From: a virus
Virus record (IMG/VR): IMGVR_UViG_3300020469_000036
Coordinates: 7,731-71,730 of that record
DNA: 64,000 bases
Reading direction: 5' to 3' (one strand)
In this document: positions 27,748 through 60,406 of the stretch, piece after piece
How positions within the stretch are numbered: the stretch's first letter is position 1
Layout: every line of letters starts with the position of its first letter
The notes under the pieces: generated by a model
What the model saw: the letters and a program-made list of their open reading frames with translations, nothing else
Database searches by the model: none
Told to the model about the DNA's origin: nothing
Translations under genes and position numbers: made by a program

Positions 27748-28995
27748 TTAGCTGTGCTCAACATTCATTCCTGTAACGAGGAAACGACGGAAGTAAGGGT
27801 TGCTATCAGCACCAGTTCCACCAGTAGAAACGGCGGTGGAGCTAACAAGCGGGTTACTCACAAGACCGTAGCGAGTCTTGAAACCGATTTTCGGCTGGAA
27901 TGTATTTTCAGCAACTGCACGCACCATCGTGAGAGGAACGTAAGGGCAGTAGAAAATACCAGCATCGTAAGCATTCGAACCTTTGTAACCAACAGTAGCA
28001 TAGTCAGTACTCTGGAAAGGATCGACGTAAACCTTAAGGCGTCCGTTGATAAGACCTGCGAAGGTATTACCAGTGTCGTCCACGTTAAGATCAGTACTAA
28101 GAGCAGGTGTGTAATCAAGAACACCAGCAGCTGCAAGAGCAGAAGCAACGTTACTTGTTACAAGCACGTAGTTACCTTTACCGCGGCGAGTTCCCTTAGC
28201 GATGTTGTTCGCTTCGAGTTCGATCTGGAAGAGAAGAGACTTGAACTTCTCAACTGCCCACCGTCCATCGGCGTCAGTGTCAAGATCGAATGTACCAGGA
28301 GTTGCACCTTGAGCAGCACCGTGGATAGCCTCGGAGTTGATCTTAGCGATAACTTCGCGGTTGATCTCAGCAAGAATCTCAGTAGAGAGAATGTTTGCGA
28401 GTTCAGCTTCAGCATCAAGACCGTGAACGGACTTAAGATCCTGCGCGAGTTCCATTGTGTACTCAGCTTGGAGTTGGCGAGTCTTAGCTTCAACCGTTTG
28501 CTTCTCGATGGTGAAACCCATATCGGCAATGGAGGTAGAAGCTTCAGCAGTTGCAGTAGCAATACCTGTACCGGATCCAGCAGATCCTGCACCAGAGTGG
28601 TTATCAAGAATTGTGTCAAACAAAGCTTCGTCGTCATCAGTGTCGATAACAGCATTGTCTGGGGAATCCTGACCACCGTAACGAGCCTTCATCGCAAAGA
28701 TGAGACCAGTAGGACCGGTCATTGGCTGAACACCAGCGATGTCATAAGCAACGAGGCTTGGCATTGCACGGCGAACGAGGGAAACCAGTACGGGATCCCA
28801 CTTAGCAACAGCACCAGTAAGCGTTTGGTCCTCTGTGAGGAAGTTAGCTTGGGCAGCACTTTCGCGAGCAGCGATTTCTTGGTTTTCAAGGAGGACTGCA
28901 GTTACCGACTTACGATAGTTGTCGACAAAAGCAGGTGCGTCGGCAGACTCCAAAATGGGCTGCCACTTCTTTTCTAATTCTTCTGATTTAAACAT
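27748..28995 (-). CDS. gp23: Major capsid protein
   Basis: VTAVLLENQE, GVQPMTGPTGLIFAM, ELAQDLK.VHGLDAEAELANILSTEI, FYCPYVPL, FQPKIGFKTRYG. Confidence 0.98.
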   Translation of the reverse strand: MFKSEELEKKWQPILESADAPAFVDNYRKSVTAVLLENQEIAARESAAQANFLTEDQTLTGAVAKWDPVLVSLVRRAMPSLVAYDIAGVQPMTGPTGLIFAMKARYGGQDSPDNAVIDTDDDEALFDTILDNHSGAGSAGSGTGIATATAEASTSIADMGFTIEKQTVEAKTRQLQAEYTMELAQDLKSVHGLDAEAELANILSTEILAEINREVIAKINSEAIHGAAQGATPGTFDLDTDADGRWAVEKFKSLLFQIELEANNIAKGTRRGKGNYVLVTSNVASALAAAGVLDYTPALSTDLNVDDTGNTFAGLINGRLKVYVDPFQSTDYATVGYKGSNAYDAGIFYCPYVPLTMVRAVAENTFQPKIGFKTRYGLVSNPLVSSTAVSTGGTGADSNPYFRRFLVTGMNVEHS

Positions 28996-29035
28996 TTTTT
29001 TATATGATGTTATAAGTTATTGTTGGGAAATTTAA

Positions 29036-30346
29036 TTAGGTAGCACTCTTTTCGAGGCGCCCAAGTGTTTCCATGTAAGAGGCCATTGTTTTGTCAACAG
29101 GAGCGTCGGAAGTCTCTTCCTCAACATCTGCGCCTTCAACAATGGTTTCAACAGCTTCGTCTTCAGTTTCCTGAGACTCTTCTGCAATAGTTTTGCTGGA
29201 ACCACTGAAGTAAAACTTCTTGAGGGTCTCCACGTTCTTCGTGAATTCCTCGTCAAAATCAACTCCTTCTGCCAACTTAATAAGTTTAGCAGACTGTGTT
29301 TCAGCAAGATCTTTAGTAGCTTCAGCAAGAATCTTCTCTCGGCTAAGATCGTCAATACGATCAGCAAGAGAATCAGCAATGCTATTAGCCTTGGCAAGAT
29401 CTTCCCTAAGTGTTGCGGTTTCTTCTTCGAGAGTATCAAAGAGATTCACCTTGCTCTCAGGAACTTCAACGTAGTTCTCGACGAACAGAGCTTTAAGAGA
29501 AGTCATGAAGTTTTCTGCAATAGAAGTACGAAGTGAAGTTTCAATAGCAACTTCATTTTCGTTAATCCATTCTTCAACAGCATAGGTCAGATAAGCGTCA
29601 ACCTGATTAGTGAGTGTCTCATTAATCGTTTCAACTTCTTCGCTAAGCTTAGCTTCATATTCAGACTCGAGGCGATCTTTTGATTCTTCAACTTTGGTAC
29701 GAACCTCAGCTTCAAAAATAAGAGCAGCCTTTGCCTTGAATTCTGGTGTTAAACCTTCTTCCTCTTCAACAAGACGAGTAAGGTCTTCAGATGAAATGGT
29801 TTCTTCAACCACTTCTTCAGTTGCTTCAACTTCTTCAGTTGCTTCAACCACTTCTTCAGCAGTCTCAACTTCTTCAGTTGCTTCAACAACTTCTTCAGTT
29901 GTTTCAACTTCAGTATCTTCTTTCACACCCTTACCTGTTTCCAGATCCTGCTTTTCAACAGCACCCTTTTCGCCCTTCCGCTTTTCACGGCGAGCTTTAA
30001 GGTAAGAATCAGCTTCATCACCTTCTTCGGAATGCTTGTCAGCATTAACCATTTCAGGTTCTTCTTCTTTGTGTGCATCTTCTGTTACAGCTTCAGCATC
30101 TTCATCTTCATCTTCTTCAGAAGGACTGTCATCACCAGCGGCGACTTCTTCCTCATCTTCATGAGCACCTTCAGTGGCTTTCGCCTTTTTCAATTCAGAA
30201 GCTTCAGCAGCAACTTTCTCTTTGCCTTCTTCAATCTCTTCTACGTTTTCTGAGACGGATTCCTCCACCTCTCCTTGTTCAAGAGAAAGCAAGTCGGACT
30301 CAACGATATCCTCGATAATGTCTTCTTGGTTATCTATGTTTTCCAT
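29036..30346 (-). CDS. gp22: Prohead core scaffold protein
   Basis: EFKAKAALIFEA, VDAYLTYAVEEW..ENEVAIE, LF.ENYVEVPE; acidic; between gp21 and gp23. Confidence 0.92.
   Translation of the reverse strand: MENIDNQEDIIEDIVESDLLSLEQGEVEESVSENVEEIEEGKEKVAAEASELKKAKATEGAHEDEEEVAAGDDSPSEEDEDEDAEAVTEDAHKEEEPEMVNADKHSEEGDEADSYLKARREKRKGEKGAVEKQDLETGKGVKEDTEVETTEEVVEATEEVETAEEVVEATEEVEATEEVVEETISSEDLTRLVEEEEGLTPEFKAKAALIFEAEVRTKVEESKDRLESEYEAKLSEEVETINETLTNQVDAYLTYAVEEWINENEVAIETSLRTSIAENFMTSLKALFVENYVEVPESKVNLFDTLEEETATLREDLAKANSIADSLADRIDDLSREKILAEATKDLAETQSAKLIKLAEGVDFDEEFTKNVETLKKFYFSGSSKTIAEESQETEDEAVETIVEGADVEEETSDAPVDKTMASYMETLGRLEKSAT
29801..29913 (-). repeat. Imperfect 18/21-bp tandem repeats encoding (T/A)EEV(V)E(A/T) in gp22
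   Basis: About 6 units containing ACTTCTTCAG and TTCAAC. Confidence 0.8.
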
Positions 30347-30448
30347 GTTTGTTTTCTATTATGTTTGGAGAGGGGTATGTTACCCAGTCTCATATTAGTC
30401 AGTAATTTCCCATGCTATAATCAAAACATCCATAATGTAAAAAATTCT

Positions 30449-31093: not shown

Positions 31094-31127
31094 AGTGGTG
31101 TTTCGTAATTAACTTCTTCTTTAACGA

Positions 31128-31544: not shown

Positions 31545-31575
31545 TTGTTTTTGATTTGGTTTTAAATTTTAATTG

Positions 31576-32421: not shown

Positions 32422-32477
32422 GTTGTTATTTATATTGTTTTAAGTCTTAAGTATTTAAAGTGTTACATATTTTCTAT

Positions 32478-33977
32478 TTAAAACAGATCGTCTTCCTCTT
32501 CTTCAGGTTCATCAGAGATCTCTGCTTCCATTCTTTCAACGTCTTCTTCAGACATATTAAGAACGTTACTTCTTACCCACTTATTTGAGTAATATTTTCC
32601 AATATGAGGTTGAATTTGATCAAGCATGTTAAGGCGCTCGCCAAGGATCTCAAAGTCCTTGAGTTCGGAAAAGAAGTTATCCTCAATATAGTCAACAGAG
32701 ATTGACTCACGAATGTCAGGCCATTCAGATTCGGTACAAATGTTTTTCAGCAGGCATTGAACCTTAAGCATTTCGATAAACAGTGCAGAGAACTTCTTCC
32801 TTAAACGGTTAATAAACTTTTGGAATTTAACTTCCTCTCTGCTAATCTCACTTGCTCGGCCAACACTAAACTGAGCGCCTTCAACATCAAGACGACCAAC
32901 AGGAACGTTCAGTGAGCGATAAAGTTTCTTTTGAAAGAATACAACGTCATCAATCTGACTAAGGTTTTCACCACCAGGAAGGGTAGTAATTTCCGTTCCT
33001 CGTCCACCTTCTCGCCGTGGCAACCAAAAGTCTTCCAGCATACTCATGGCTTTGCGGTCATCTTTAACTTCACCGCTTGTTGCATCGTAAACAAGTTTGT
33101 TTCGATACTTACTCATGATACCCTGAACATATTGTTCTGCCTTACCTTTTGGAAGGTTACCAATATCAATGTAAAAGATTCGTCGTTCAGGGGCTCGTGA
33201 GATACGGTAAATAACCAACGCATCTTCCATGATACGAAGTTGGTTTACAAGTTTAACACTTTTGTGAAGGTAAGAAACCGCGTACTTACCAGCATCATCT
33301 AGGTTACCACTTGGAACATAAACAATACTTGTTGGATCAATTTTAATTGCGTTCGTATTTGATCCTAAATTGTCGCTGTAAAGAAAGTATTCTCTTGCAA
33401 CGTAATGAGTTTTAACCTGACTGTCAGGATCGGTTTTACTTTTAATCTCTTTAATCTTTTTAATCTTAAGAGGATCAATCATTCTTACTTCCTGAATACC
33501 CTTTTTGATATTCTCAGGATCAATAAGAAGGTGATAATAAAGTTTACCGTCAATGTACCACCGGCGGAAAATATCGTGGCCGTTGAAGTTAAAAGAAAGA
33601 AGTTTACAAACGTTTTGAAATTCTTCTCGAATCAAATCTTTAACATTATCAGGAACGTCGAGCGCATCGGTATCGAGATTAACTGGGGTACCTGAGTTAT
33701 CAGCAACAATTGCTCCGTTAATAATATCGGAAATAGCGTTATCACATTCGGGTTGGGATGCTGCTTGGCGATATTTAAGAATAGCGTCGCGTTCGTTACC
33801 AACGCTTACATCGTCAAGGTCAAGTGTTTGTCCGTAGTAACCACTTGTGCTATTCCCTGAAATGACCTGACTTCCGTCCGTTTCAATAGGAGGAGCAAAA
33901 GACGATATCTTTTTTTCTTCTTCGCTATCGTCGATTTCTTTTATTCTGCGTGAAATGTCAAGTCCGAATATTTTCAT
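32478..33977 (-). CDS. gp20: Portal protein
   Basis: FRRWYIDG, EDALVIYRISRAPERRIFYID.GNLPK.KAEQY, EDFWLPRREGGRGTEITTLPGG. Confidence 0.98.
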   Translation of the reverse strand: MKIFGLDISRRIKEIDDSEEEKKISSFAPPIETDGSQVISGNSTSGYYGQTLDLDDVSVGNERDAILKYRQAASQPECDNAISDIINGAIVADNSGTPVNLDTDALDVPDNVKDLIREEFQNVCKLLSFNFNGHDIFRRWYIDGKLYYHLLIDPENIKKGIQEVRMIDPLKIKKIKEIKSKTDPDSQVKTHYVAREYFLYSDNLGSNTNAIKIDPTSIVYVPSGNLDDAGKYAVSYLHKSVKLVNQLRIMEDALVIYRISRAPERRIFYIDIGNLPKGKAEQYVQGIMSKYRNKLVYDATSGEVKDDRKAMSMLEDFWLPRREGGRGTEITTLPGGENLSQIDDVVFFQKKLYRSLNVPVGRLDVEGAQFSVGRASEISREEVKFQKFINRLRKKFSALFIEMLKVQCLLKNICTESEWPDIRESISVDYIEDNFFSELKDFEILGERLNMLDQIQPHIGKYYSNKWVRSNVLNMSEEDVERMEAEISDEPEEEEDDLF

Positions 33978-33998
33978 ACAATTTATATATACATTAAA

Positions 33999-34030
33999 TT
34001 ATCTCGGGAGGAATACACCCCCCGAGATAA
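33999..34030 (-). terminator. Hairpin / probable terminator after the tail tube gene
   Basis: TTATCTCGGG...CCCGAGATAA. Confidence 0.65.
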
Positions 34031-34061
34031 CTGTTTTTAATTTTTACACTGAATAATTTAA

Positions 34062-34619: not shown

Positions 34620-34664
34620 AATTTTTTTATCCTAACTATTTGTTATTATTTATATCCTTATTGC

Positions 34665-36398
34665 TTATCTTCCGATTAATTCCTCGAATGATATACCAGT
34701 TCTAGTAGCAACGAAATTCAACGTTACAAAGTTAATCGAACGTGTAGGCTTGATAAAGATATCTGCCACAAAACGATTTGCGTCAACTACCGCACTGCCA
34801 TTATTGGTTTCGTCGCAAACAACGCGAAAGTCAGTAATACCTCTCCGGCCTTGAACATCCCGAAGGAATGGCTCAATAGCGTTACGGAAAGTAGAGCGGG
34901 TAAACGTGTCGTTAAGTTCAAACAGTTGAAACTTACTTGCAGTAGCAATCGCTTTCTCGATAGTAATAAAGAGACGGCGAACGTTAATGCGATCAAACGC
35001 ACTAGGCTTGGTTAAAGCAGTCTTGTCACCAAAGAGAACCGTGCCTTGCCCAGGTAGGGTAACAACAGGGTTGATTCGCTTTTGGTAAAGCTCATCACGA
35101 TCCGCTTTCTTAGGGTTATACGCAAGACGTGTAACACCTCGAAGTTGACCACGATTAAGACCAGCAGGAGAGAACCAAGTATCGGCGGCATCGTCAGTAG
35201 CAGCACAAAGACCAGCAATGTGGCCATGAAGCTGAATAAATGCGAATGCGTCGCGATACTTATTATAAACATAAGCTGGAGTACTGTCAAACACAATATA
35301 GCTGCTAGAACTAATAGCATCAAAGTGTGTTGTGATTGAGGTCTTCTTAGAAGAATCTGATGTTAAATCCTTAATTGCAAGAGGAGCAGAGATAAATCCA
35401 ACAAGATCTTTACGGCTATCAGCAATAGTTTTAATCTTAGCATCAGTTTCACCACCGCTATCTTCAAAAGCGAAGAGCAGGTTAACCTCTACGGTTTCCG
35501 AATCTTCAAGCAATTCAAGCGCGGTTACAACAGTAGCATTCGTGTAAGTGGATGCATCAGCACCACCTGCAAGCTCTACGTATGTTTCGCCGGGGCTATC
35601 GTCTCCAAGCCAGGAAATTGCTCCAAGGTCAGTAGAAACTGAAGTAATCTCTGGATCAGTTGATGTATCCTTAACACCAAAGATAAGTGAGGAATTAGTA
35701 TTAACAAAATCTGCCCAGTAGTTCGATTCGCCAAATTGGTTTTTAGCATTACGTGCAATGGAAAGACCTTCGTGAACTTCAAGAATTTCTCCTTTAACTC
35801 CCGAGAATAGGCCGCCATTATCAACAACTACAACGGATACTTCGTCGTTAATAACAGTTCCTCCCGTGAGATCCAAAGCAAAATCGCTTGTCCCAGGTTT
35901 AAACTGTAATGATCCTCGAACGCTTGCGGGTTGAGAGTCATAGTTTTCTTCATTAACAACGTGAACCCTGAGTGAGTTACCAAGAACACCAGCATAGCGA
36001 GCAACAACGTGTGCGCCAAGCGTATTAAGAGCGGCTTGATTACTTTCGAGTTCTGTTACAGTACTAATAGTAAATCCGGCCGATTCAGGAGAATCATCTC
36101 CGTGGCTAGAATACGAGTTAAGTGCTGTAGCTGCGTTTGCCCGGACGACTTTCAAGTTGTTGCTGTATTTCAAGAATGCAGCAGCTTCTAAAAAGCTCCG
36201 TTCGAGTGTGGCGTCTTCTGATGAGGGGGCTCCAAAAATTCTTGCGAGTTCCTTCTCCGAACTGACGGTTACGACTTCTCCAATCGGTCCCCATCTGAAG
36301 TGACCAGCGTATCCACCAATAGAGGTAGACTGTGCCGGAATGATGTCTGTAAGGTCGATTTCTTTGACCTCGACACCTGGTGATACTAAAAATCCCAT
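34665..36398 (-). CDS. gp18: Tail sheath protein
   Basis: SPGVEVKEIDLT, F.WGP, WFSPAG.NRG, GDKT, SAFDRINVRRLF, IKP.RSINF. Confidence 0.98.
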   Translation of the reverse strand: MGFLVSPGVEVKEIDLTDIIPAQSTSIGGYAGHFRWGPIGEVVTVSSEKELARIFGAPSSEDATLERSFLEAAAFLKYSNNLKVVRANAATALNSYSSHGDDSPESAGFTISTVTELESNQAALNTLGAHVVARYAGVLGNSLRVHVVNEENYDSQPASVRGSLQFKPGTSDFALDLTGGTVINDEVSVVVVDNGGLFSGVKGEILEVHEGLSIARNAKNQFGESNYWADFVNTNSSLIFGVKDTSTDPEITSVSTDLGAISWLGDDSPGETYVELAGGADASTYTNATVVTALELLEDSETVEVNLLFAFEDSGGETDAKIKTIADSRKDLVGFISAPLAIKDLTSDSSKKTSITTHFDAISSSSYIVFDSTPAYVYNKYRDAFAFIQLHGHIAGLCAATDDAADTWFSPAGLNRGQLRGVTRLAYNPKKADRDELYQKRINPVVTLPGQGTVLFGDKTALTKPSAFDRINVRRLFITIEKAIATASKFQLFELNDTFTRSTFRNAIEPFLRDVQGRRGITDFRVVCDETNNGSAVVDANRFVADIFIKPTRSINFVTLNFVATRTGISFEELIGR

Positions 36399-36484
36399 GT
36401 GTTATCCTTTCAGTGTAATTAATTTATAAGTGTTAAGAATCATTATAAGGTTATTTCAATAATACTATTTATTATTTTTAAGTT

Positions 36485-38626: not shown

Positions 38627-39403
38627 TTATGGGGAATCATCCCATATTACGTTTGGATCAGGAGGGCCACCAATTTCAATCACAACAGTGTTGGATTCGG
38701 GTGTATCGGTACTTGAACCCGTTCTTACCCTAACACCAGCATCGGTATAACGTTTCGAAGTATCAAAGTCATTAAAGAAAGTATCCACGGACTTGATAAG
38801 ACCGGTGGTTTGAGGGTTACTCGTGAACTTGGTTTTAACGCTAAAGGTTAGTGTGTAAACTATAAGACGTCGAGAAGATTCAAAGTCTCCTTCATACGCA
38901 TCTTCTGCGCTTACGCCTGATAACGTTATTGGTACATCTGTTATACTTTCAGGACCTTCAAGACCTTTAACGCTTAAAGTATAATTAGGATTAAAATGCG
39001 GAACAATTTGCTCAAGTATCTGAAGAGCTTCATCCTGTCCTCTTGACATAATGTTCAGTGAAAAATCAAGAGTGTATGGTACGCATTGATTTACTTTAAC
39101 TTTATTTCCTTCACTGTCAGTTTGAACATTTCGGTTTAAACGATTTAACTTGGTGGATTGGTCAAAGCTCAATCCTGTCATTTCAAACGACATGCGGGGT
39201 AGTCTAAGTGCAACGTCCCGCTCCGCCCGAGCTTCAACTCTGACCAGATATTTTTCCTTTGGAGCATAAGCAAGTGGAACCCGCCTTGCGCCAATTAATT
39301 TACCAGCATCAAGCTGCGCTATTTGAATGTCATTAAACATTTGACCAAAAGCAGCAACCATATTCTTTATGGTTCCATTGTAAAAGTATTCGTGTCCAAG
39401 CAT
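38627..39403 (-). CDS. gp15: Tail sheath stabilizer/terminator, paralog A
   Basis: YFYN.TI...V.AFG..FNDI, VPLAYAPKEKYL, LPRMSFE, DEALQILEQI.P.F.P. Confidence 0.92.
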   Translation of the reverse strand: MLGHEYFYNGTIKNMVAAFGQMFNDIQIAQLDAGKLIGARRVPLAYAPKEKYLVRVEARAERDVALRLPRMSFEMTGLSFDQSTKLNRLNRNVQTDSEGNKVKVNQCVPYTLDFSLNIMSRGQDEALQILEQIVPHFNPNYTLSVKGLEGPESITDVPITLSGVSAEDAYEGDFESSRRLIVYTLTFSVKTKFTSNPQTTGLIKSVDTFFNDFDTSKRYTDAGVRVRTGSSTDTPESNTVVIEIGGPPDPNVIWDDSP

Positions 39404-42400: not shown

Positions 42401-42449
42401 ATTTGCGGTGGTATCAAGTATTTATACAAAGTCTTCTCTTAACATTGTA

Positions 42450-46587: not shown

Positions 46588-49500
46588 TTATGAAGACAGA
46601 ACCTGAGCCTCGATTGGATGCCAATCTGCTTTACCATCGACTTGCTGTCCTGAACCAGCTCCTAGGAAGTATGTCGCGATGCCAGCTCCATAACTCCGGC
46701 CGGGTTTAGCCGCAAATTCTGCTTCGGTTTCTCCGACAACAGCGGTTTTAGCAATTGCGAACGATGCAACATAATTACCTCCACCGGATGAAACCAGCCT
46801 CGAGGTTTGTATTGCAACAATATTTTTAGGATCTTCTGGAAACGGAACTCTGATATAACGGCGTGTTGTCGAGTTAAAGTATTTACCTGTTCCTAATCGA
46901 CCAGTAGTATTGCTTCCTCCAGCAAATAACGCATATTTACCTGCTTCACCTTTCGATTCAGCAACAATGAATATACTTCCCGCATTGGAGCCATAGGCAC
47001 CGGATGAAACAAAAACCTTTTCGACCCACCAATTAGCATCAATAGTAGTTGATAAAGTAAAGGCGGTATGGAGGGCCCGACTTGATAGACTACCATCTTC
47101 CCTGTCAGCTAAACCATTGTCTGCATCTCCGGCATGTCGAATAGAACGATTTCCGTCGGTATTTTCAGTGATAACAAATGAGCTATCACTTGATGAAATT
47201 GCAATGATATCTACAGGGCGATCATCTGTTCCTAGAGAAACCACTCCAGGACTTCGAGTATTAACAGCAGCGCCTCGACCAAGCTGACCTCTGTCATTTT
47301 GACCCCAAGACATAACAGTTACGCCGCCAGTAATATCGGTTTCTGAAAGAGCATCTAGCTCGGTAGCGGAATTTGGCGTATTAACTGTTCGTCTTGCTAA
47401 AACAAAGGCGCTAGAGTTTGTGCTTGTCGTCGCTCCAACTGAAATATCAAACATACCTTTTAATTTTGCAAGGTGACTTACAGTCCTGTTGCCAATAGAA
47501 GCATCAGGATAAGCACTAGTTGTTCCTCCTTCAGCAAGAGCGTTGTATGCGCGGGTTTCGTCAATAAACAATCTAAAGTGAGATGAAAGGTTTGCGTTAT
47601 TTTCGTCACCGCGGATAATGTAATAGAATCTATTATTAAATTTTAATCTTTCAAAGTCTTCAAATCCGTGATCTACATTGGCTTCACCAGATCCGGTTCC
47701 AGCTGCTGATCGAAATACTTTATTACTAGTACCGGTAACCACTTGAAGGAATATCGCGCTATCCAATGTTGTTCCACTGTCCAAAGCAGGAACGTGTCTC
47801 ATCACGAAGCTATCAGTGTCTCCATTTCCTCCCTGTCCTTGTCCGTTCCATCCGGCAAACCAAAGTTCGTTGTCGTTTTCATTACCAGGCTTCCCAATAA
47901 TATGCCAAGAAGTAAAGGCATTAATAACAGATTTTTTAATGTAGTAAGAGTATTGATCAAATGTTTCCGATCCAGTGAGACCAAGCTCGGTTTTCCATGC
48001 AGCAAGAGCCGTTGCATCATCAGTATCATCAAGGCCGCCTTTTAGAGTTGCGTTGCTCTTGTAATAATGGAATCGTTTGTTAACTTTTTCAACAGCATCA
48101 GAATCAAGGCTGCTAATACCTGCAGCTCGTTCTGTATCAGTTAATCCGAATGTAGCCCAAAGACCGCTTCCCGCACTATTAAGACCATACACCAAAGGGC
48201 CGGAAGCATCGTATGATGTCTTTGCTGTGGATCCAGTTCCTAATGTGCCGTAGGTGGCATTAGTTATTCCAATCACCCAACCGCGAGTATAAGGAACACC
48301 CGCACCGGCAACAGCAGCGCTGCTCGTTTCATATCGTTCTAAACCATTAAGGCGATTGCCACTAACGTATTCGTTGCCAATACCGTCTTTGGTCTTGATA
48401 ATAATTCCAGGCTGGCTCTCTTCATTTGTATAAGTTACCGTATCAACAGTAACAGCATTGGCAGGCCATGAACTCTTTTGAGGAAGCATGGCTGGGTTTG
48501 GAGTTTCAACCGCGGTATCGTTGTATGGCTGCTCCCCGAACGAATTAAACTCAGAGTAATAATCTATAAAATCGTCTGCGGCTGTAGTGCCGCGGGATTG
48601 TTGACCAATCTCGCCGCTGATATTTCTTCCACTGCCATAAAGAACGTCATCTTCATCTATAAAGAAAAAGTTATAATGATTTGCAAATGAACGTTTAAAA
48701 ATTGCTTCTTGATTCGTAATTGGTGAAATGGCAGCGAACCAACCATCAGGTTTATCATTGCGATATTGACTCGTCCCATGCCGCTCCTGATTGTTTATAC
48801 CAATAACTCGGCCTCTTCCATCTCTATCTACCATAGTTACTGTCATTTGGTTATCGAAATATGATTGGTGGCCATCGATAAGTTCTGCAAAGGACTTAAC
48901 GCTATCCTCGTATACTCTAACTTTTGTAAGGGCGGAATCGACAAAGGCCTTTGTGGTAGCGTGAGCATCTTCGGTTGGAGTTGCCACAGAAAGTGTACCT
49001 GCAGAATCCCGTTTAGCAAGTGTATTAGCAGTTGCTGCAGTATCAATCTCTTCAACGAGCTCAAGTTTTCCACCTACACCAAATGCGAAATCATCGGTAT
49101 TAATATTTAGTCCAATCTTTCCTCCCGTAATATCAAAGAAACCAACCTCAGCATTACTTGTATCAAAGAGGTTAATTCCCGAAGCACCAGCAACACCTGT
49201 AGTAGTTGAAACTGCAAACGATGTAGTGTCGTCACTCTTGTATTTAATAAGGTAAACAATTGCATTACCTCCAATAGGATCTTCTTCACCTGGTGACCCG
49301 ATTGTATCAGGAAGTGTTGTACTTCCGTTAGGACTGTCAATACCTTCAAGTAATTCAATAAGCTCTTTAAACTCAGTATCAATCGGGCTATTTTCTGTAT
49401 CGTCAAAAGAAAGAGTTTGACCCGCGCAAGGGATCCAGCCTGGGACTGTATTTAAAATACCGTAGTTTTCAGGACTGCTTAATCCGTTTAAAGTTTCAGG

Positions 49501-50467: not shown

Positions 50468-50468
50468 G

Positions 50469-53400: not shown

Positions 53401-55913
53401 GATACCCGTGTATCAATCTTACCAATATCGCGCATTGTATAGCGGCGATGGTTGTATTTCTCAACACCAATGTTGGTTGCTTTAAACGTATAAGCAGGAA
53501 CAAACAAGTCGAAAAGGACCAAGCCATTTGCTGAGTTAGTAGGAGGAACAGCAGTAAGACTTGGTGTTCCTTTTTCGATTGAGAAATCTCCGTTTGGTAA
53601 AATAGTTACTGAGTCAACACGGGGTAAGAAGTAATCAATCTTACCGGTAATTGCGCTATAAGGATCAAGCGCAAGAATATCTGTTGTGCTTGGGTAAGGT
53701 CTAATATCAAAGAAGTCTCCCAAACGTTTACCGTTGTAAAGAGGAATATCCTCAAGATCAGATTGACCGCCAGAAGAGTTTCTATAACTGTTTACCGTGT
53801 AATAGTTACCTCCGCTAAACTTCCAGTGCTTTACACTAATGGTAGATGCACCAGCTTTAAGGCATCGAACTTTAGCAAGTTCGTATTCTGTTGACCTCTG
53901 ACCGTCACTAACAAGTTCAAAGTTATCATCTTCAACGCTGATCAGGTGAAAGACATTCGGAACTTCAACAATATCCCCAACGGCTGGCAGAGGACTGTTA
54001 TTTAAAGTTATTGTTTCGGTGGTTTCGGTTTTAATACCAATGTTGGTAAGGTCATTTACTACTGTAGCAATAATGCTAATAACATCTCCATCGGCCGCTG
54101 TTGGAATATCTAAAGTTAGCGAATCCGTGTCAGCGCTTGACACAACAGTAAATTGTGTTGGTAGTAAAACCTTATCTTGAGTAGAGTTGTAAACAGTAAT
54201 TGAAGAAGGACTCTTATCAAATGTTACTCCAGTAAGATCAAAGGTTACTTCGTTACCAGAAGCTACCGGCATGTCAGCAGAGAGGTTAACTCTTTCAGTA
54301 ACTTGAATTGAGTTAAACTTTCTAACCGCTATTCGAGAAAGTGGAAACAGCGTTGAATTAATTTGTGTATCGTGTAACTTAACGCCGTTCCTTGCTTCAA
54401 CATTAAAATGAAGTGTGCCATAATCGGTAACTGCGGCTCCTCTAATGGTTTCTACATTGTCAAATTTCTTTCCAGTATTAAGAGAAATATCGTGAAGAAA
54501 CATACGATGCTTGGCGCCGTCAATAAGCTCAACTGAAAGAATTTTACAAGTACCAATTGTTGCATCACTTGCATCCAAAAGGTTATAAGTTCGACTGTAA
54601 TTATCAAAGAAAGGTAAGCCTTCACCGTTACCTGTACCATATCCTGATTCGGGACTAGAGTCAGTTTCAGGACTAGCAAGAGGGGAAGCAAAGTTATCAA
54701 CATTTCGAAGTTGACCTTCAACATAGTTACCCATATTGGCCACGGCTGAACTATCTTCCAATACTCCGCTTCGTAAATCGGCTGCGGATACCCGTGCTTT
54801 ATCTCCTAAAAGCGTAAGCGGCGATTGCAGATCAACTCTTTTTCCACGAACATAAGCAACGGAAGGGGAAAGAGTAGCTGCATATTTTTTGTCCGCATCT
54901 GTTTGAGAAAGATTATTAGCAGCGGTGCTATTTTTATAACGTCCTGTGTATGAAGCAGCGTTTAAAACTTCTTGAATTTCAATACCAAAATTGTTTACCA
55001 CATAGCTTCCGCTTTCTTCAAAAGTTCGTTGGGCAAGAATTTTTTCAAGAGTAGTACCACTGTTATCAATCGCATTCTCAACAATAATAACCTTGTTATC
55101 TTTAATCTGTAAAAGAATTACATAATTGTTATCGTCCTCAAAGGCTGTAACCAAATCCAAAGTAAGAGTAATTTGATAACGATCCGCGCCTGGTGCAGCA
55201 AAGTTTGGTTGCCCGTTTGCGTTATCAAACAACGTTGAATCCGCACCACTAGTAACTTGCTTTTCACCGATTTTTAATACTGCATACCCGTCGAAAAGTT
55301 CATCTTCTCCAAGGGCTCGGCAGACAAACTGTTCTGTAGCGGAAGCTAAACAACCATTGACAAAGAAGATACCGTTTGGCAAAAACAAGCTAACAGCGTT
55401 ACCGTTGTTAATCACGGTACCATTAATAACATTTTCCAGTGTATCTTCAATCGCCACCCCGCCTGCTGTAATTTCATTTACAGTTCCGGTGGTATTAGCT
55501 TGACGATATTGAATATAAAGACGATACGTAAGATTCTGGAGTAACTCTCCTTTTACCAACGCTGCTGTAATGGTGTCGTTAGATGTTACAGAAATACCTG
55601 TTGTGTCAGCAAGTAATTTAGCAAATGCATCTCCATCAGTTGTGTTTTCAAATGTAACATCAATAAAGCTTAACGTATTATCAAAGGTGGTGTCACCGCC
55701 AATAATAGGACTGTTTGGTTTAAACAAACTCTGGCCAAGACGATCAAGTTGCGCTTGAAGAAGCGACTGAGCCTGGTTAAGCTCCCTTGCCTGAACGGTT
55801 CGCCCCGGCTGGAATAAAATCCTTAAATAGTTTTTATCCAGAGGAGTTAAACCGGCAGTGTCCGGTGTGTTAATGTCGTCGTAATACTTTGATGTGTAAG
55901 CCGTGATTGCCAT
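50469..55913 (-). CDS. Large virion structural protein (DUF4815/VrlC-like)
   Basis: YYDD, ILFQPGR.VQARELNQ.Q, APGADRY, RTFEESGSY, RRYTMRDIG..D.R..NLEYYTSLSLLE, DPLAQSF, DLRIIAT. Confidence 0.9.
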   Translation of the reverse strand: MAITAYTSKYYDDINTPDTAGLTPLDKNYLRILFQPGRTVQARELNQAQSLLQAQLDRLGQSLFKPNSPIIGGDTTFDNTLSFIDVTFENTTDGDAFAKLLADTTGISVTSNDTITAALVKGELLQNLTYRLYIQYRQANTTGTVNEITAGGVAIEDTLENVINGTVINNGNAVSLFLPNGIFFVNGCLASATEQFVCRALGEDELFDGYAVLKIGEKQVTSGADSTLFDNANGQPNFAAPGADRYQITLTLDLVTAFEDDNNYVILLQIKDNKVIIVENAIDNSGTTLEKILAQRTFEESGSYVVNNFGIEIQEVLNAASYTGRYKNSTAANNLSQTDADKKYAATLSPSVAYVRGKRVDLQSPLTLLGDKARVSAADLRSGVLEDSSAVANMGNYVEGQLRNVDNFASPLASPETDSSPESGYGTGNGEGLPFFDNYSRTYNLLDASDATIGTCKILSVELIDGAKHRMFLHDISLNTGKKFDNVETIRGAAVTDYGTLHFNVEARNGVKLHDTQINSTLFPLSRIAVRKFNSIQVTERVNLSADMPVASGNEVTFDLTGVTFDKSPSSITVYNSTQDKVLLPTQFTVVSSADTDSLTLDIPTAADGDVISIIATVVNDLTNIGIKTETTETITLNNSPLPAVGDIVEVPNVFHLISVEDDNFELVSDGQRSTEYELAKVRCLKAGASTISVKHWKFSGGNYYTVNSYRNSSGGQSDLEDIPLYNGKRLGDFFDIRPYPSTTDILALDPYSAITGKIDYFLPRVDSVTILPNGDFSIEKGTPSLTAVPPTNSANGLVLFDLFVPAYTFKATNIGVEKYNHRRYTMRDIGKIDTRVSNLEYYTSLSLLEKGANDKSIFDDDGTARFKNGLVVDGFRNFTIGNARSSDFLCHYERERGHLYPAFKGYSIPFELISTDGIDIDADSEFTESGLHNEVLTLPYNQVAYITQPYATQFMSVQPYEFVATLGQMILAPEVDTWNDTITAPEIDFDIFGGTTLFDTLNDVLENQAGRANAASGIGSANAGWRAARPGEGNPALGGGWRRDTTRTGPWWEREETRTVTETRVVQERIEQALGEFVTDVKVRPYARSKALYFRAEGLKPSSKFYFFIDGVDVTSNAHLLTRSEIINSHEHTETAILTSQIEGEVEKFLTNDLTVPTWFGTRWYNLKSSDRSFATTVANQNTALRYWSYVKTILDTINATTNSAEEKTRQINSLLPGFDQSSLSQYDGADEATLLAAFPTSDIISDADGVAEGIFIIPNNDTLRFSSGEKTVTITNSPRNLKEESTSNASARFISNGLEINKQALNISTTLPRLQRETRTETRTNTIYDPLAQSFSVTDTTGIFATSIDLFFAGKPATENTKVPVQSYIVTTSNGYPTGEVVPGSEISIDWEDVRTSTDASLATTFEFPHPIHLAADTEYATVCFSTSPEYTAYIAEQGGDKTDLQTGHVITSQPALGSLFASSNKSTWTPMQNKDLKFTLRRGSFATNQTAQFVAGPQVGTHLGEIDSTTISNNTGWNELTCTVTVEAPFTTVIDSDGNSTKVAVSGGITTTATPVFNPDDSSISKINLVRKGFGYLEVPTVTITDGTKTETITGTLNRYNVGAFSLNQKSINLGGKTSIRNEVFFEETKYDVEPLLPVEYITNQNHNIQASNIDKTNLQTFFSSTDERLTPVINRDLSLETRDYFISETGDTSQYITREMALDNLSDQIDVYLDVNRPSTTSEIEVFAQLKDTNNAIISSTETDTNFHTLSAINPTSIPVNINRGRFSEVRFNLNTEPVEFSSFIIKIVMRGKNYGDAPFSKDLRIIATV

Positions 55914-57913
55914 TATAGTTGGATGATAAGTTTAAGCTCTTCGTTTTGCCCTTCAGCTCGAGTAACTGTAGATCTGTTATCAATAAAGACCACGTCTCCA
56001 GTTCCTTTTTGGTATGTAGAAGTAAATTTAGCGTCGGGTGTCAAGCTGGTCGTAACGGTTGATGAACCAAGTGTGTCATCTTTAGGTGCCTCAAAAGTAA
56101 TTGCAGAAGCTTCGCTAGTTTCACCTGATACAAGAATTGGCTCGTAACCATAGTAATGATCGGTGTAATAGTAGTATCTAAAAGTACTTAGTTCACTACC
56201 AGACTCTCGTGTTTGCACGTGAGAAATAACGCCAACCTTTTTACCATCTTGAACGATTTGCCACCCAGCACCAATATTATTTGCGCCGTCTGCAGGAATT
56301 ACTTGAGTCCCTGGGAACGTAAAATACTTAAGAGGTTGAACGTAATCCGCAGTAAGATTCGCGTCAGCTGCATTGAGAGGATTTTTAATAACGCTAACCT
56401 GATGATATTCTGTAGCATCAGGAATATAAGTAGCATTACCGGTATCAATAAAAAGTCCAAGGTAAAAGGCTGGAAGCGTTTCAAACTTGGCAAACCCAAA
56501 TCCTTCAATAGGACCAATCTTTGGCATGATAACCGCATCTCTTCTCAAACTTGCGGAAGCGTAACTCGATACATCAGGGCTATCATCGAATCCTAGAATA
56601 CCTGAAGTATTACCACGAAGATCTTCAAGTCTGGTGGTTGTGAGCGGCGAACCGCCAGCTGCGCTTATATCAACCCTGCAATCTTTCCATGCAAGAATAT
56701 CAGCAAAATCAGTTGTGTAATTTGTATCAGTAAGTCTAATTTCTGAAATTGATTTGGTCGCAATATTAATCACGTGATCAACGTCGGTGATTGTTTCACT
56801 GCGAGAAAATCCAAATTCATCTATACCGCGTAAGGTAATATCAGCTTGAATAGTAACGGTTGTATCTCCGCCAGTAAAGAGACCTGGGTCAGGCTCGTAA
56901 ACGTTACCGCCATCAATTATATTAAATCCGAATACCAAACCACCAGTTTTTGTTTTGATATAAGAAGTAAGGTTATCACTTCCAGCAAGAGTAAATACAG
57001 CAGGAGATTCGCTTAGGCTTTCAACATCCGCTTTGGTATCTCCACCAGAAAGAGTTGTAGCCGTGACTAGTGTATTAACTTCAGGGGAGTCTGCGATTGA
57101 ATCGCGAATCGCTTGAGCAAGTTGGTCAATCGTAAGATCAACTTCACCAGGGCTATCAGCAGAAGCTGGAACAGTGATTGTTATATCCGTTCCAGTAACC
57201 GCAACTGCAATAGCACTTGCTTGAGGACTCGATTCATCAACCACAAATGTAACCGTAATACCGTTTCCGGAAATACCAGTTGTTTGAGCTTCAAGTTTTA
57301 GCGTACCATCAGTAAATTGCACAAACGCAAAAGCTGCAGTGGTGTTATCACTTGAAGAAGTTGTAGCACTGCCGTTTCCAATATCAATAAACTGAGAACT
57401 GTTAATGTCGCTGTATTGCTCAAACCTTCCAAGGTATGTAAACACATAACCTGAAGTTGTTGAAAGAATTCCGTAATCAGTAAAGGACTGGCCAAGACGC
57501 GCAATCACGTCAGCATCAACCGCAGATCCATCAACCGGAGCCTGTAGAACCAAAAAGATTTGATCACTAACTGTAACGTAGCAAGGTTTAAGGTCATTGG
57601 TCGTATCGGTATAAAAACACGTTGGATCAAGAGGATCAAACGCCTTGTATTTAGTTGATATCGCAAGATCGTTACGTGGAATCACTCGGGAAATATTTGT
57701 TGAATTAATTCTAAATAATCCAGTGATGTGATCCAAAACGCGTTGTTGATCGTTAAATGTTCCAACCGGAAATGGAGCGGTAGCAGAAGTACCTGCAACA
57801 TCGTCCCATGCATCTTGTTGACCAATCCCTACGTAATAGGAATTACTCGTAATATCCGATTCCAGTATGTCCGCAGAATTTCTTCGGAACTGTTCTGTAA
57901 TGATTGCTGCCAT
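55913..57913 (-). CDS. gp8: Baseplate wedge subunit with an inserted domain
   Basis: MAAIIT.QFR, YYVGIG...W, RVIPR, C-terminal G.V.FIDNR..V.R..GQ.EELKLIIQ. Confidence 0.85.
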   Translation of the reverse strand: MAAIITEQFRRNSADILESDITSNSYYVGIGQQDAWDDVAGTSATAPFPVGTFNDQQRVLDHITGLFRINSTNISRVIPRNDLAISTKYKAFDPLDPTCFYTDTTNDLKPCYVTVSDQIFLVLQAPVDGSAVDADVIARLGQSFTDYGILSTTSGYVFTYLGRFEQYSDINSSQFIDIGNGSATTSSSDNTTAAFAFVQFTDGTLKLEAQTTGISGNGITVTFVVDESSPQASAIAVAVTGTDITITVPASADSPGEVDLTIDQLAQAIRDSIADSPEVNTLVTATTLSGGDTKADVESLSESPAVFTLAGSDNLTSYIKTKTGGLVFGFNIIDGGNVYEPDPGLFTGGDTTVTIQADITLRGIDEFGFSRSETITDVDHVINIATKSISEIRLTDTNYTTDFADILAWKDCRVDISAAGGSPLTTTRLEDLRGNTSGILGFDDSPDVSSYASASLRRDAVIMPKIGPIEGFGFAKFETLPAFYLGLFIDTGNATYIPDATEYHQVSVIKNPLNAADANLTADYVQPLKYFTFPGTQVIPADGANNIGAGWQIVQDGKKVGVISHVQTRESGSELSTFRYYYYTDHYYGYEPILVSGETSEASAITFEAPKDDTLGSSTVTTSLTPDAKFTSTYQKGTGDVVFIDNRSTVTRAEGQNEELKLIIQL

Positions 57914-57940
57914 AATGTTATTTATATATGTATTAAGAGA

Positions 57941-60406
57941 TTAGTCTTGAGTAAATGTGAAAGAATTTAAAAAAGGTTCTTTTGTATCGTATTCGTAGCC
58001 AACTGGAGAATCATCCAATCCTCCTAAAAAGCTCCTTGAATTTAACGGGGAATCAAAGGGAGGAGAGTTATCTGTCCAAGCTGTATTATATATTGGGTTG
58101 ATAAAGCGATCGTTTGATACAATCGCAGCTAAAGCATAACTGCTTCCAAAAAGTGGAGTGCTATCATCATATGATGCTACAGTTTCCCATAAAGTAAAAT
58201 CAAGTTCAAATAATTCTGGAATATGATCGGTTGTCCAAGGGTCGCGATTAATAAATAATAGCTCGCCTTCAGGACTTGAGTCTGAAGTATAAAGTCCCCA
58301 ATAACGATTTGATTCAGAGAACTGGAAAAACAAATTTGAGTTATCCGATTCATATGTATGAAGTGTATCAATAATTGCTTCTGGGCTGTTGCCATCTACA
58401 ACACTTGTTGTTCCAGTAAATACAAAATGTTCTGATGCAACTTCTCCTTCAGCGAGACCTTCGGCGTGAGCATCCATAATAAAGTCAAACTCTGCAATAT
58501 TAAATTGACCTAAGTAAGATAAGGTATAAAAGTCAATAAGTGCTTCAGTACTAAAGTTGTTAAAGTGCGTATTATAACTAACCCCAAACGCAGAAGCAGT
58601 ATCTGAAAACCTGATATTACCTTGTAGTCTGTTGATAATATCTGGAACCGCTTCTCTAAATTTTTGAATGTTTAAAGTATTACTTGAAAAGGTGGCGTCT
58701 TCATACAGCGCTCTAAAGGTAGGATCAATTCCGCTCTCTGAAGTGATTGTTCCAGTTGGGAGTTTCCATTTATACTTTAGTAGCACTTGTTTAAACCCAC
58801 CGTCGAGAAGAGGAACATCATTATTAAAAGTTGCACTTGTACTGTGTTGGTAATTTGTTTCGTCTCGGTTAAGAGCCAAAGCACCGTTAACATATACATC
58901 TCCAACCTGTAAAAGATCGTTTCCAATTTCAATGCGGTCGCTGTAAATGTGTATAAAACTAGCAGTCTCGGGCGAATCATCGTTACTGGTAAATCTAATA
59001 AGATTTTGATCAACAGCAAAAGGACTAGGATCGCCGGCGTCAAAAATAAACGAAACCCAACCTTCCTTATATTCAGTTGAACTTAAATACGTAGGAAGAT
59101 ATGTAATAGGTGAGTTGGCAGGCTCGTTAAAGTCTTCAATAATCAAGCTGCTATCAACAAATGTTGAAAACGAATCGCTTGAAGCTTCAAGCGGCTCAAA
59201 GGCAGAAGCAAATTTAAATGCACCGTCAGAAACTTTTGTATATTCAGCATCTCCTTCAGATATTGAAAGGTTTCCAAACTCACCCCAACCTGCGTTATCA
59301 ACAAACTTTCCATCTTTATTCCACGTATCGCGATAAGCGGTTTGAACGGTGTTTTGATTTACTGCGGAATAGCAAATAATAAAGTTAACGAAAAACGCTT
59401 TAAGTAAATCTCTATCAACCCCATCCCTTCTATTGTTACCAAAAATTGATCTGGTGTGTGTCAGGTAATGAAAACCTCTGTCACCCATCAACACTTTAAT
59501 TAAAAACGTAAGAGCAAGATTCGAGTATTGATTCAGCGGAGAATGCCGCCCGAAAAACGTATCCCAATCAATAAAGTCTGCAAAGGAATTAAGCGATTGT
59601 GTTTCGGCCCAGCCTTCTGGGGATGTACTTGTTTTATATTCAAACAACCGTGGGATGTTATTAAATTTTGTAACACTACTTTCAAGATCGTCAGCATCAG
59701 TAACAATATAAAGCGTACCGTCTGCGGGAGCATCAGCACCAGTAGGAAGTTCTGAAGTAAGCTTAACAACCTTGGTTACGTCCAAGTAAAACTCAAGCGC
59801 TTCTTTGATCCAATCATTATCATGAATGAGTTCAAGAGTTAGCGCAACAAAGAATTTAAGGCCAGCTGGGTGAACGAACTTAAGGTATTCATTTCTCCAA
59901 TTTGCTTCATCGTCTTTAGATTTAACAACATAAGAAAACTCTTGATACCGAAAGCTATCACGGATCTTATTTACTGTTGAAGTTGTTCCTTTTTCTAAAT
60001 CAGCCACTGTAAATAGCACGTCTTTTGGATACACCAGAGTTACAAATTCATTATAGAAAATACGGAAGAAGGCATAAATACTTTCTTCAGATCCACGTGC
60101 ATTGTAGTAATCAGCAATAATCTTATACAGTCTTACACGATCAAGGGATCTGCTTTTAGGAATTGCAGACGCGATCATGCGTTCAATCGCATCCAAATAC
60201 CTTGAGCTTGCTGTATCAACGTCGTGTTGACGAATTAAGTTATTCAGCTCAAAGGAAGGTTTAAGCTCTTTGTTAAGGTGACGATAATAAGCCTTTAACA
60301 GCTTTATCATTTCTGGTGCAGATGTTTCAAAGTGCTCGGGTAAAACCGATTCGACCATCTGTGTTTCAACCGCGGTTGCGGTACCTGTTGCTATGCTTAA
60401 CTCCAT
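57941..60406 (-). CDS. gp7: Baseplate wedge initiator-like protein
   Basis: LPEH, LKAYY, Y.ARGSEES...FFRI.Y, IRDS..YQEFSYVVKS, VHPAGLKFF. Confidence 0.75.
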   Translation of the reverse strand: MELSIATGTATAVETQMVESVLPEHFETSAPEMIKLLKAYYRHLNKELKPSFELNNLIRQHDVDTASSRYLDAIERMIASAIPKSRSLDRVRLYKIIADYYNARGSEESIYAFFRIFYNEFVTLVYPKDVLFTVADLEKGTTSTVNKIRDSFRYQEFSYVVKSKDDEANWRNEYLKFVHPAGLKFFVALTLELIHDNDWIKEALEFYLDVTKVVKLTSELPTGADAPADGTLYIVTDADDLESSVTKFNNIPRLFEYKTSTSPEGWAETQSLNSFADFIDWDTFFGRHSPLNQYSNLALTFLIKVLMGDRGFHYLTHTRSIFGNNRRDGVDRDLLKAFFVNFIICYSAVNQNTVQTAYRDTWNKDGKFVDNAGWGEFGNLSISEGDAEYTKVSDGAFKFASAFEPLEASSDSFSTFVDSSLIIEDFNEPANSPITYLPTYLSSTEYKEGWVSFIFDAGDPSPFAVDQNLIRFTSNDDSPETASFIHIYSDRIEIGNDLLQVGDVYVNGALALNRDETNYQHSTSATFNNDVPLLDGGFKQVLLKYKWKLPTGTITSESGIDPTFRALYEDATFSSNTLNIQKFREAVPDIINRLQGNIRFSDTASAFGVSYNTHFNNFSTEALIDFYTLSYLGQFNIAEFDFIMDAHAEGLAEGEVASEHFVFTGTTSVVDGNSPEAIIDTLHTYESDNSNLFFQFSESNRYWGLYTSDSSPEGELLFINRDPWTTDHIPELFELDFTLWETVASYDDSTPLFGSSYALAAIVSNDRFINPIYNTAWTDNSPPFDSPLNSRSFLGGLDDSPVGYEYDTKEPFLNSFTFTQD

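Follow-up and report, generated by a model that had tools for sequence, protein, structure and literature searches.

Gene layout and DSP sites

The window, a stretch of 64,000 nucleotides that forms part of the 71,730-bp IMG/VR virus record IMGVR_UViG_3300020469_000036 (rated 40% complete), encodes a T4-type set of replication and virion proteins, and the present analysis concerns a short peptide motif, Asp-Ser-Pro (DSP) and often DDSP, that recurs across the virion proteins. All long open reading frames (ORFs) of the window lie on the minus strand. A replication block recognised with Pfam (DNA polymerase, clamp and clamp loader, RegA, UvsW, UvsY and gp46/47-like proteins) is followed by a virion block which starts with gp23 (27748-28995), gp22, gp21, gp20, gp19, gp18 (34665-36398), gp17, gp16, two gp15 paralogs, gp14, a probable gp13 and two small ORFs. 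It then encodes a TPR-like protein, a sulfotransferase-like protein, a GT4 glycosyltransferase, a collagen-like protein, an RCC1-repeat fibre and a DUF4815 protein of 1814 amino acids (aa), and ends with gp8, gp7, gp6 and gp25. The genes for the two paralogs of gp15, the tail sheath stabiliser, adjoin each other (38627-39403 and 39412-40140) and only the downstream copy, gp15A, ends in DDSP. The closest named phages are the Pelagibacter phages HTVC008M and Mosig and the Methylophilales phage Melnitz, with about 50% identity in gp18 and 41% in gp14.

There are 17 DSP tripeptides among the 66 minus-strand ORFs (20,215 aa), 16 of which fall in 10 proteins encoded at 27748-60406 (one each in gp23, gp22, gp15A and the RCC1 fibre, two each in gp18, gp14 and the collagen-like protein, three each in gp8 and gp7), while the remaining one lies in the homolog of the clamp-loader protein gp62 (13680-14117). 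The sites, together with a cluster of near-variants in the DUF4815 protein whose coordinates were derived by hand from the ORF end at 55913, are as follows.

28660-28668, minus strand: gp23 major capsid protein, aa 110-112, GGQDSPDN
30122-30130, minus strand: gp22 scaffold, aa 73-75, AGDDSPSE, the sole site in an internal protein
36087-36095, minus strand: gp18 sheath, site 1, aa 102-104, HGDDSPES
35592-35600, minus strand: gp18 sheath, site 2, aa 267-269, LGDDSPGE
38630-38638, minus strand: gp15A C-terminus, IWDDSP followed by the stop
40515-40523, minus strand: gp14 neck protein, site 1, aa 189-191, TNNDSPEQ
40413-40421, minus strand: gp14 neck protein, site 2, aa 223-225, TTTDSPQL
46111-46119, minus strand: collagen-like protein, site 1, aa 151-153
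45613-45621, minus strand: collagen-like protein, site 2, aa 317-319, DPDDSPTA
49330-49338, minus strand: RCC1-repeat fibre, aa 300-302, EGIDSPNG
57149-57157, minus strand: gp8 baseplate protein, site 1, aa 253-255; ANSP in the related contig L101
57083-57091, minus strand: gp8, site 2, aa 275-277
56576-56584, minus strand: gp8, site 3, aa 444-446, GFDDSPDV; DASP in L101
58970-58978, minus strand: gp7 baseplate protein, site 1, aa 477-479
58046-58054, minus strand: gp7, site 2, aa 785-787, PPFDSPLN; YESP in L101
58004-58012, minus strand: gp7, site 3, aa 799-801, GLDDSPVG
54642-54692, minus strand: DUF4815 near-variant cluster FASPLASPETDSSPESG, aa 408-424, with SP at aa 410, 414 and 420

The excess of DSP in the window

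From the composition of each protein, 2.23 DSP would be expected in the virion block against the 16 observed, and 0.17 DDSP against the 8 found. Shuffling gave a mean of 2.26 and a maximum of 9, and none of 3000 shuffles attained 16. DSP ranks first of all 8000 tripeptides (Poisson 2.8e-9, or 2.3e-5 after multiplication by 8000), with SPE second (14 vs 1.99 expected) and NSP fourth (8 vs 1.69), and a dipeptide (Markov) null, under which 4.8 are expected, still gives P = 4.3e-5. Non-structural proteins hold 1 DSP vs 1.44 expected (Fisher test of structural vs non-structural proteins, P = 8.5e-4). An earlier note on this DNA, made from its letters and ORF translations, had reported 16 DSP in virion proteins, eight of them within DDSP, a single non-structural copy in gp62 and the string FASPLASPETDSSPESG in the DUF4815 protein, all of which the recount reproduces with correct coordinates; its expectation of about two agrees with the computed value, and the excess is stronger than it had stated.

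Both the order and the identity of the residues are strict. The other five permutations of D, S and P occur only 1-3 times each, with 2.27 expected apiece, there is no excess of Thr for Ser (DTP 2 vs 2.32 expected), and DSA stands at 3 vs 4.77. The SP dipeptide is in excess in the virion block (56 vs 31.6 expected) and not in the replication block (18 vs 23.2), and neither TP (30 vs 32.1) nor AP (24 vs 31.0) is enriched. The residue preceding the 56 structural SP is D in 16 cases, N in 8 and S in 8; around the sites, D, E, S and T are common at +1/+2, and D or N ahead of the motif. Since Ser is encoded by TCN codons at 10 sites and by AGY codons at 6, the signal resides in the protein and a DNA-level repeat is ruled out, as the earlier note had also argued.

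Distribution among related phages

Relatives were drawn from IMG/VR and JGI metagenomes, their loci or contigs being designated by L-numbers. Contigs about 55-100% identical to the window are referred to as the window clade, while a second group (L026, L033, L144-L155 and L220-L231), with about 43-63% identity to window orthologs, is referred to as lineage 2. Unique proteins of the window clade hold 89 DSP vs 22.1 expected, although orthologs are not independent and such clade totals overstate the evidence. In lineage 2 there are 74 vs 9.73 expected, L147 alone having 8 vs 0.65, and the motifs occur in gp14, gp15, gp18 and gp23 at positions mostly different from those of the window. Individual clade contigs behave similarly (L085 8 vs 1.59, L097 9 vs 1.32, L101 6 vs 1.48), and those with fibre genes only can lack the excess (L090 and L299, each 0 vs 1.0).

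The other 232 marine T4-like loci (2051 unique proteins) have 131 DSP vs 103.9 expected, with a few lineages moderately enriched. For head-module loci, L103-L117 hold 36 vs 7.08 and the distant L118-L142 hold 9 vs 13.25. A general trait of T4-like structural proteins is ruled out by the 80 IMG/VR loci retrieved via gp18 (41-78% identity), with 38 DSP vs 39.4 expected, and by HTVC008M, whose 17 structural coding sequences hold 0 vs 1.08. DSP enrichment is lineage-specific, strong in the window clade and lineage 2 and absent from most related marine T4-like phages. No cultured relative was found inside either DSP-rich lineage, the top gp14 match being 41% identical.

The excess is carried by particular proteins. 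The mean number of DSP per ortholog in the window clade, lineage 2 and other loci is 1.00, 1.25 and 0.02 for gp23, 1.33, 1.47 and 0.06 for gp18, and 1.83, 1.45 and 0.16 for gp14, while clade gp7 and gp8 have about 3 each. The count is zero in gp19 (tube), gp20 (portal), gp21, gp16, gp17 and gp13 of both rich lineages, and in clade gp6 and gp25. In T4, the protein types that bear DSP here form the outer surface of the head, the sheath, the neck and the baseplate rim, and the DSP-free types are internal or not part of the particle. SP itself is scarce in the clade portal (gp20, window 32478-33977; 0 vs 1.47 expected per protein) and in clade gp6 (window 60428-62416; 0.14 vs 1.81). A general avoidance of SP in proteins meant to stay unmodified is nonetheless unsupported, in view of the lineage 2 portal (1.5 vs 1.06) and clade gp17 (2.25 vs 1.71).

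Position, retention and gain of the sites

AlphaFold2 (AF2) models place the three sites examined in coil. In gp23 (mean predicted local distance difference test score, pLDDT, 71) the DSP lies within a long coil (residues 107-130) that follows a strand (96-106), the next helix starting at 131. Its alignment with T4 gp23 breaks off after residue 109 (T4 134) and resumes at 156 (T4 247), so that the DSP opens a short segment standing in for T4 residues 135-246, the external insertion domain. Both gp18 sites (mean pLDDT 78) are also in coil, with the next helices starting at 114 and 287. The first lies between the Pfam matches to domain III-N (29-86) and to the sheath domain (300-461), in a block where pLDDT falls to 65, and at the second, residues 268-270 drop below 50 inside an otherwise confident domain. 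A helix N-cap (S-P-E box) is ruled out at all three sites, none of which is at a helix start. Together with the ortholog alignments, these models bear out the view of the earlier note that the sites favour variable segments, insertions and termini.

Across all 16 sites, 75 distinct variant contexts were found among orthologs. S-P was retained in 46 of them, gapped in 11 and substituted in 18, with a mean flank identity of 0.50, and sites interconvert among DSP, NSP, ESP and ASP. At the gp23 site S-P is retained in 8/8 variant contexts, at a flank identity of 0.34. S-P is present in all 11 aligned rows of the loop (the window and clade orthologs, 80-100% identity), preceded by D, E or Q, while the remaining positions and the loop length all vary. 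In an alignment of 40 sequences the expanded xSP loop occurs in 9/9 clade rows, in both nearest outgroups (L026 VDSP, L076 GESP) and in 1/29 others. In gp14, S-P is kept in 6/6 variant contexts at site 1, where +1 is E, I, S, D, A or V, and in 5/5 at site 2, once as NSSP. Among the fibre proteins, S-P is found in 4/7 contexts at collagen-like site 1, the RCC1 site reads IDSP, LNSP or TDSP in orthologs and DTVST in one group, and the column of collagen-like site 2 is gapped in 8/8 contexts, yet L301 and L302 have DPEDSPTA.

New sites appear through insertions of 4-10 residues. Against the L002 ortholog (78% identity), the DDSP of gp18 site 2 stands out as a clean insertion of four residues, two inserted DSP segments are present in gp18 of L085, gp7 of L097 has an inserted SPDSPPDSPE, and insertions in the DUF4815 protein create VDSP in L092 and SGDSP in L085. 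C-terminal DDSP is found on gp15 homologs in three lineages (IWDDSP in the window, FGFDDSP in L153, FDDDSP in L278). Judged from these sequences, the enrichment is real, specific and under selection. Selection on the peptide, as the earlier note had proposed, agrees with the lineage-specific excess, S-P outlasting its flanks, repeated gains by insertion and the strict Ser and D-S-P order.

Three further observations concern these loci. A gp18 homolog in L003 (453-2828; 60% identity) has a domain of about 200 residues inserted at the first DDSP site, containing GGLDDSP and PSPSPS. In other lineages, an ORF of 112 aa just upstream of gp13 has a conserved (S/P)DSPSI (L272 7917-8255, L274 1194-1532, L278 2687-3025). 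In sister contigs of the clade (L083 vs L084, and others), blocks 100% identical to the window stand beside blocks about 75-84% identical, which points to frequent recombination within the clade.

The GT4 cassette and its transcription

The sugar-handling genes of the virion block, and the late-promoter-like sites that appear to bound their transcription unit, are listed below.

44178-45338, minus strand: GT4-family glycosyltransferase (Pfam Glycos_transf_1 E 2.1e-16, Glyco_trans_1_4 E 2e-15)
43192-44181, minus strand: sulfotransferase-like protein, 329 aa, a weak assignment (Pfam Sulfotransfer_4 E 2.4e-4)
42450-43283, minus strand: TPR/PPR-like protein (weak Pfam PPR/TPR_8, NCBIfam PPR repeat, Atlas lead)
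57919-57926, minus strand: TATAAATA late-promoter-like site upstream of gp8, the nearest such site upstream of the cassette
42419-42426, minus strand: the next TATAAATA site, immediately after the TPR gene and ahead of orf106

With the collagen-like fibre gene to one side and the neck genes to the other, GT4 is situated inside or beside the structural module. Its Glycos_transf_1 match scores 60.4 bits vs a curated cut-off of 26.4, and its nearest solved relative, a weak one (E 8e-5), is the lipopolysaccharide (LPS) galactosyltransferase WaaB. The sulfotransferase-like protein scores 21.5 bits, under the family cut-off of 22.8, and has no match in PDB; its nearest Atlas clusters include two named sulfotransferase. 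The TPR-like gene probably starts near 43205, the Atlas record beginning at residue 27.

In relatives, at least 8 architectures of the cassette are found, of which GT4 is the sole constant gene. Its partners include a clear Sulfotransfer_2 (E 4.5e-24), Sulfotransfer_3 and PS_pyruv_trans (polysaccharide pyruvyl transferase), and the presence of pyruvyl transferases beside GT4 argues for a sugar as the substrate. In distant GT4 homologs, sulfotransferase domains are fused to the enzyme or adjacent to it. Homology of the window's sulfotransferase-like protein to the sulfotransferase half of the fused homologs was not supported (BLAST not significant, hhalign probability 4.5%). This GT4-sulfotransferase family (P0025-P0034; L143, L305, L327-L330) resides on GC-rich contigs (53-58%) unrelated to T4-like phages and probably makes sulfated glycans. 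Some of the sulfotransferase-like cassette enzymes end in -KLDDSP or -NESP (L095 455-1438, L304 343-1317, L083 9071-10066), which may be compared with the WDDSP of gp15A; such tails could be docking tags or result in self-modification.

The late-promoter word of T4, TATAAATA, has 11 matches in the window, all on the minus (coding) strand just upstream of genes, and 0/100 shuffles reached 11. No match is found between the site upstream of gp8 and position 42426, so the cassette is apparently co-transcribed late with gp8, the DUF4815 gene, the fibre gene and the collagen-like gene. The cassette thereby appears to share a late transcription unit, gp8 through the TPR gene, with virion genes.

The position of the cassette is occupied differently in HTVC008M (L306), where four or five 2-oxoglutarate (2OG)-Fe(II)/phytanoyl-CoA dioxygenase genes (9956-12829 and 16346-18305) lie just upstream of the neck genes. 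The spot may be a general island for enzymes acting on particle proteins. A flavoenzyme of the tryptophan-halogenase family is encoded in the replication block of the window (6150-7403), and HTVC008M has one within its structural module. Window positions 2-4627 and the adjoining upstream part of the record (C1:6449-7699, L298) contain a cluster that resembles those for DNA hypermodification, with genes for a C5-cytosine methylase-like protein, a 509-aa NTP_transferase (sugar-1-phosphate nucleotidylyltransferase-like), a dCMP deaminase, a DUF1599 protein and a thymidylate-synthase-like protein, and with a 426-aa ORF that has a weak GT10-like match (E 0.0027). This cluster could supply nucleoside-diphosphate (NDP)-sugars or be a second glycosyltransferase system.

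Possible readers of the motif

The explanation favoured here, held tentatively at somewhat less than an even chance, is that selection maintains [D>N,E,S]-S-P, frequently as DDSP, as a short linear motif for some trans-acting factor, and that this motif is most probably a sequon for modification. It is kept in C-termini and in loops that are flexible and face outward, in virion proteins of two lineages of uncultured marine T4-like phages, and its Ser would be covalently modified on particle proteins late in infection. The motif would thus be read by an enzyme, one acting on the Ser. The late-expressed GT4 is the only candidate writer visible in the window, a candidate for the window clade only, and the swappable enzymes next to it could then sulfate or pyruvylate the sugar that it may add. 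Taking GT4 as the writer is the weakest step. A broader version, in which the whole particle (head, sheath, neck, baseplate and fibres) is coated with anionic sulfated or pyruvylated O-glycans on D-S-P sequons, a programmable glycan shield whose sites are set by the 4-10-residue insertions and whose glycan is varied by swaps of tailoring genes round a constant GT4, is unlikely.

GT4 is present in every clade contig that spans the cassette interval, most of these having been retrieved with GT4 as the query; four GT4-bearing records were also retrieved via gp7 or gp22 (L096/L097, L085/L105, L086/L106 and L302/L113). Several results weigh against a role of this enzyme, or against the sequon more generally. 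Three lineage 2 contigs show no cassette in the 6.6-10 kb upstream of gp14, only fibre- or adhesin-type genes (DUF4376, fn3, Laminin_G_3, beta-helix and Gly-rich proteins). A hidden Markov model (HMM) of the GT4 family has no match in 78 gp14-based loci, and pattern scans that covered IMG/VR and 241 million JGI metagenome records found this family only in the window clade and on GC-rich non-T4 contigs. These GC-rich contexts show no DSP excess (L143 0, L305 1 vs 1.07, L327-L330 and L333 1 in total), and the fibre proteins of L299 and L315, both of which carry GT4, hold 0 DSP. Among cassettes the sulfotransferases and the TPR gene vary, the latter being missing from several; this also bears on an OGT-like design, in which the TPR protein would bind a GT-B enzyme that acts on proteins. 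Finally, one site lies in the internal scaffold gp22, where it is kept in 8/14 distinct clade orthologs, the remainder having KKAKxxEGA.

Pfam PF00534 has no match in five lineage 2 records, which are 8-14% complete, and BLAST found a cassette homolog in 0/17 gp18-based loci with at least 8.3 kb upstream, other glycosyltransferase (GT) families not having been screened. Fusions of GT4 with sulfotransferase were uninformative as an independent test of the link, the only such IMG/VR locus, L143, being 58% GC, non-T4-like and devoid of DSP, and loci bearing Sulfotransfer_2 do not differ cleanly in DSP excess from other gp14-based loci (2.9-fold vs 1.9-fold). The motif is wider than this GT4 in the available contigs, which suggests that either another enzyme writes DSP, or lineage 2 has an unrelated writer, or no enzyme is involved. 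Because the lineage 2 records are only 8-14% complete, a different writer may be encoded elsewhere in these genomes, and the missing GT4 does not refute a sequon.

The earlier note had proposed O-glycosylation of Ser by the GT4 operon at 42450-45338, and had suggested testing whether the DSP excess accompanies the GT4/sulfotransferase operon across relatives. The clear GT4, its late unit and its swapped sugar partners are in keeping with the first proposal, whereas a necessary link of GT4 to the motif is not supported, and the co-occurrence is not borne out in lineage 2 (74 vs 9.7), in whose 8-14% complete records no GT4 was found. Its idea of a recognition sequon on the particle surface fares better, fitting the exposed variable loops and the pattern of selection, apart from the dependence on GT4.

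A sequon written by something other than the GT4 cassette, be it a host enzyme or a phage enzyme from the ~60% of the genome outside the record, has a fairly small probability. The writer might then be a different glycosyltransferase, a proline-directed Ser kinase or, with the Pro as its target, a prolyl hydroxylase, and the cassette would have some other task, for instance glycosylating just the collagen-like fibre next to it or changing the host envelope. Lineage 2 has the motif but neither a cassette at the same site nor this GT4 family in the contigs found, the homologous gp23 loop site in both lineages suggests that the motif is older than the clade-restricted cassette, and the dioxygenases of HTVC008M indicate that the island can hold other protein-modifying enzymes. 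The GTs in the fibre region of pelagimyophages have moreover been interpreted, in the available part of the source, as modifiers of host O-chains (PMC7029224). However, a Pfam scan of 39 window and 9 upstream ORFs (the 71.7-kb record, ~40% complete) found no kinase and no prolyl hydroxylase, the expected numbers of TP and AP speak against generic proline-directed kinases and Hyp-type X-Pro rules, and the late unit offers no strong candidate besides GT4.

Non-covalent docking, in which a TPR-like, decoration or fibre protein binds D-S-P loops and C-terminal DDSP tails, is rather improbable. TPR domains often bind short C-terminal acidic peptides, and the TPR-like gene of the cassette, the recurrence of C-terminal DDSP on gp15 homologs and the -KLDDSP and -NESP ends of some sulfotransferase-like enzymes would all suit it. 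On the other hand, a tripeptide that recurs in settings as different as capsid, sheath, neck, baseplate and fibres is poorly suited to protein binding, tandem clusters like SPDSPPDSPE and EDSPLDSPDLP resemble multi-site enzyme substrates, and several cassettes, like the lineage 2 loci, have no TPR gene. It is quite improbable that no reader exists and that DSP is an intrinsic loop element, for example an acidic, proline-stiffened, protease-resistant or ion-binding turn that aids survival in sea water. All sites are in exposed acidic loops and the two rich lineages share no writer in the data at hand, which would fit, but charge or stiffness explains poorly the strict D-S-P order and the Ser requirement, none of the three modelled sites fits a helix N-cap, and the 232 other loci in the same waters are nearly without excess. 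Chance, composition or shared descent of a few functionless sites is very improbable even with non-independent orthologs and one or two of the 16 sites expected by chance, given the corrected and dipeptide-null P values of the window alone, the clean permutation control, site positions that differ between lineages through independent insertions, and S-P outlasting its flanks.

To return to the favoured reading, a DSP sequon would, if true, be the first case in a tailed phage of a short and defined acceptor rule governing modification of the whole particle, and sugar genes among the fibre genes of marine phages could then have the virion, and not the host envelope, as their target. This would bear on the lifetime of particles in sea water, their sticking to marine gels or hosts and their escape from recognition; standard viral metaproteome searches would miss the modified peptides, and a three-residue tag for decorating phage particles would be at hand. 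Even without an enzyme, the repeated gain of a three-residue motif on outward-facing proteins calls for explanation.

Comparison with known systems

No report of a D-S-P motif in phages was found in searches of the literature on phage virion glycosylation, marine phage sulfotransferases and D-S-P motifs, and the nearest systems are of several kinds. The chlorovirus PBCV-1 encodes its own capsid glycosylation machinery, which uses non-canonical sequons. It differs in being a giant virus of eukaryotes whose glycans are N-linked, and it is not known to follow a D-S-P rule. GT4 enzymes of the GtfA/GtfB type (GT-B fold) carry out cytoplasmic O-glycosylation of Ser in serine-rich adhesins. The window enzyme has the GT4 family in common with them, with no specific similarity found, its best solved relative being WaaB.

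General O-glycosylation in Bacteroidota modifies host proteins outside the cytoplasm, the compartment in which phage particles assemble. Its sequon is given as (D)(S/T)(A/I/L/V/M/T) in the available part of the source (PMC8550257) and, like DSP, consists of three residues with Asp at -1 before Ser. Unlike DSP, which shows no Thr excess and has Pro at +1, it accepts Thr and has an aliphatic residue or Thr at +1, according to the same portion (PMC8550257). Pelagimyophages resemble the window in being marine T4-like phages with sugar-handling genes among the fibre genes; as far as the accessible text goes, their GTs, mostly GT8, are situated in a tail-fibre ‘host recognition’ region and read as host O-chain modifiers, and that text, unlike the present analysis, describes no peptide motif (PMC7029224). 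The structural proteins of HTVC008M contain no DSP.

Along with the Bacteroidota sequon, the closest parallel is with mycobacteriophages, whose virions are reportedly glycosylated by phage-encoded glycosyltransferases located beside the structural genes, O-glycans having been proposed or shown on capsids and tails. The sites are said to lie in Ser/Thr-rich C-terminal extensions of two proteins. The window GT4 is likewise placed by structural genes. What sets the window apart is a defined D-S-P tripeptide spread over ~10 proteins of a Gram-negative-type marine T4-like phage, with predicted sulfo- and pyruvyl-transferase tailoring.

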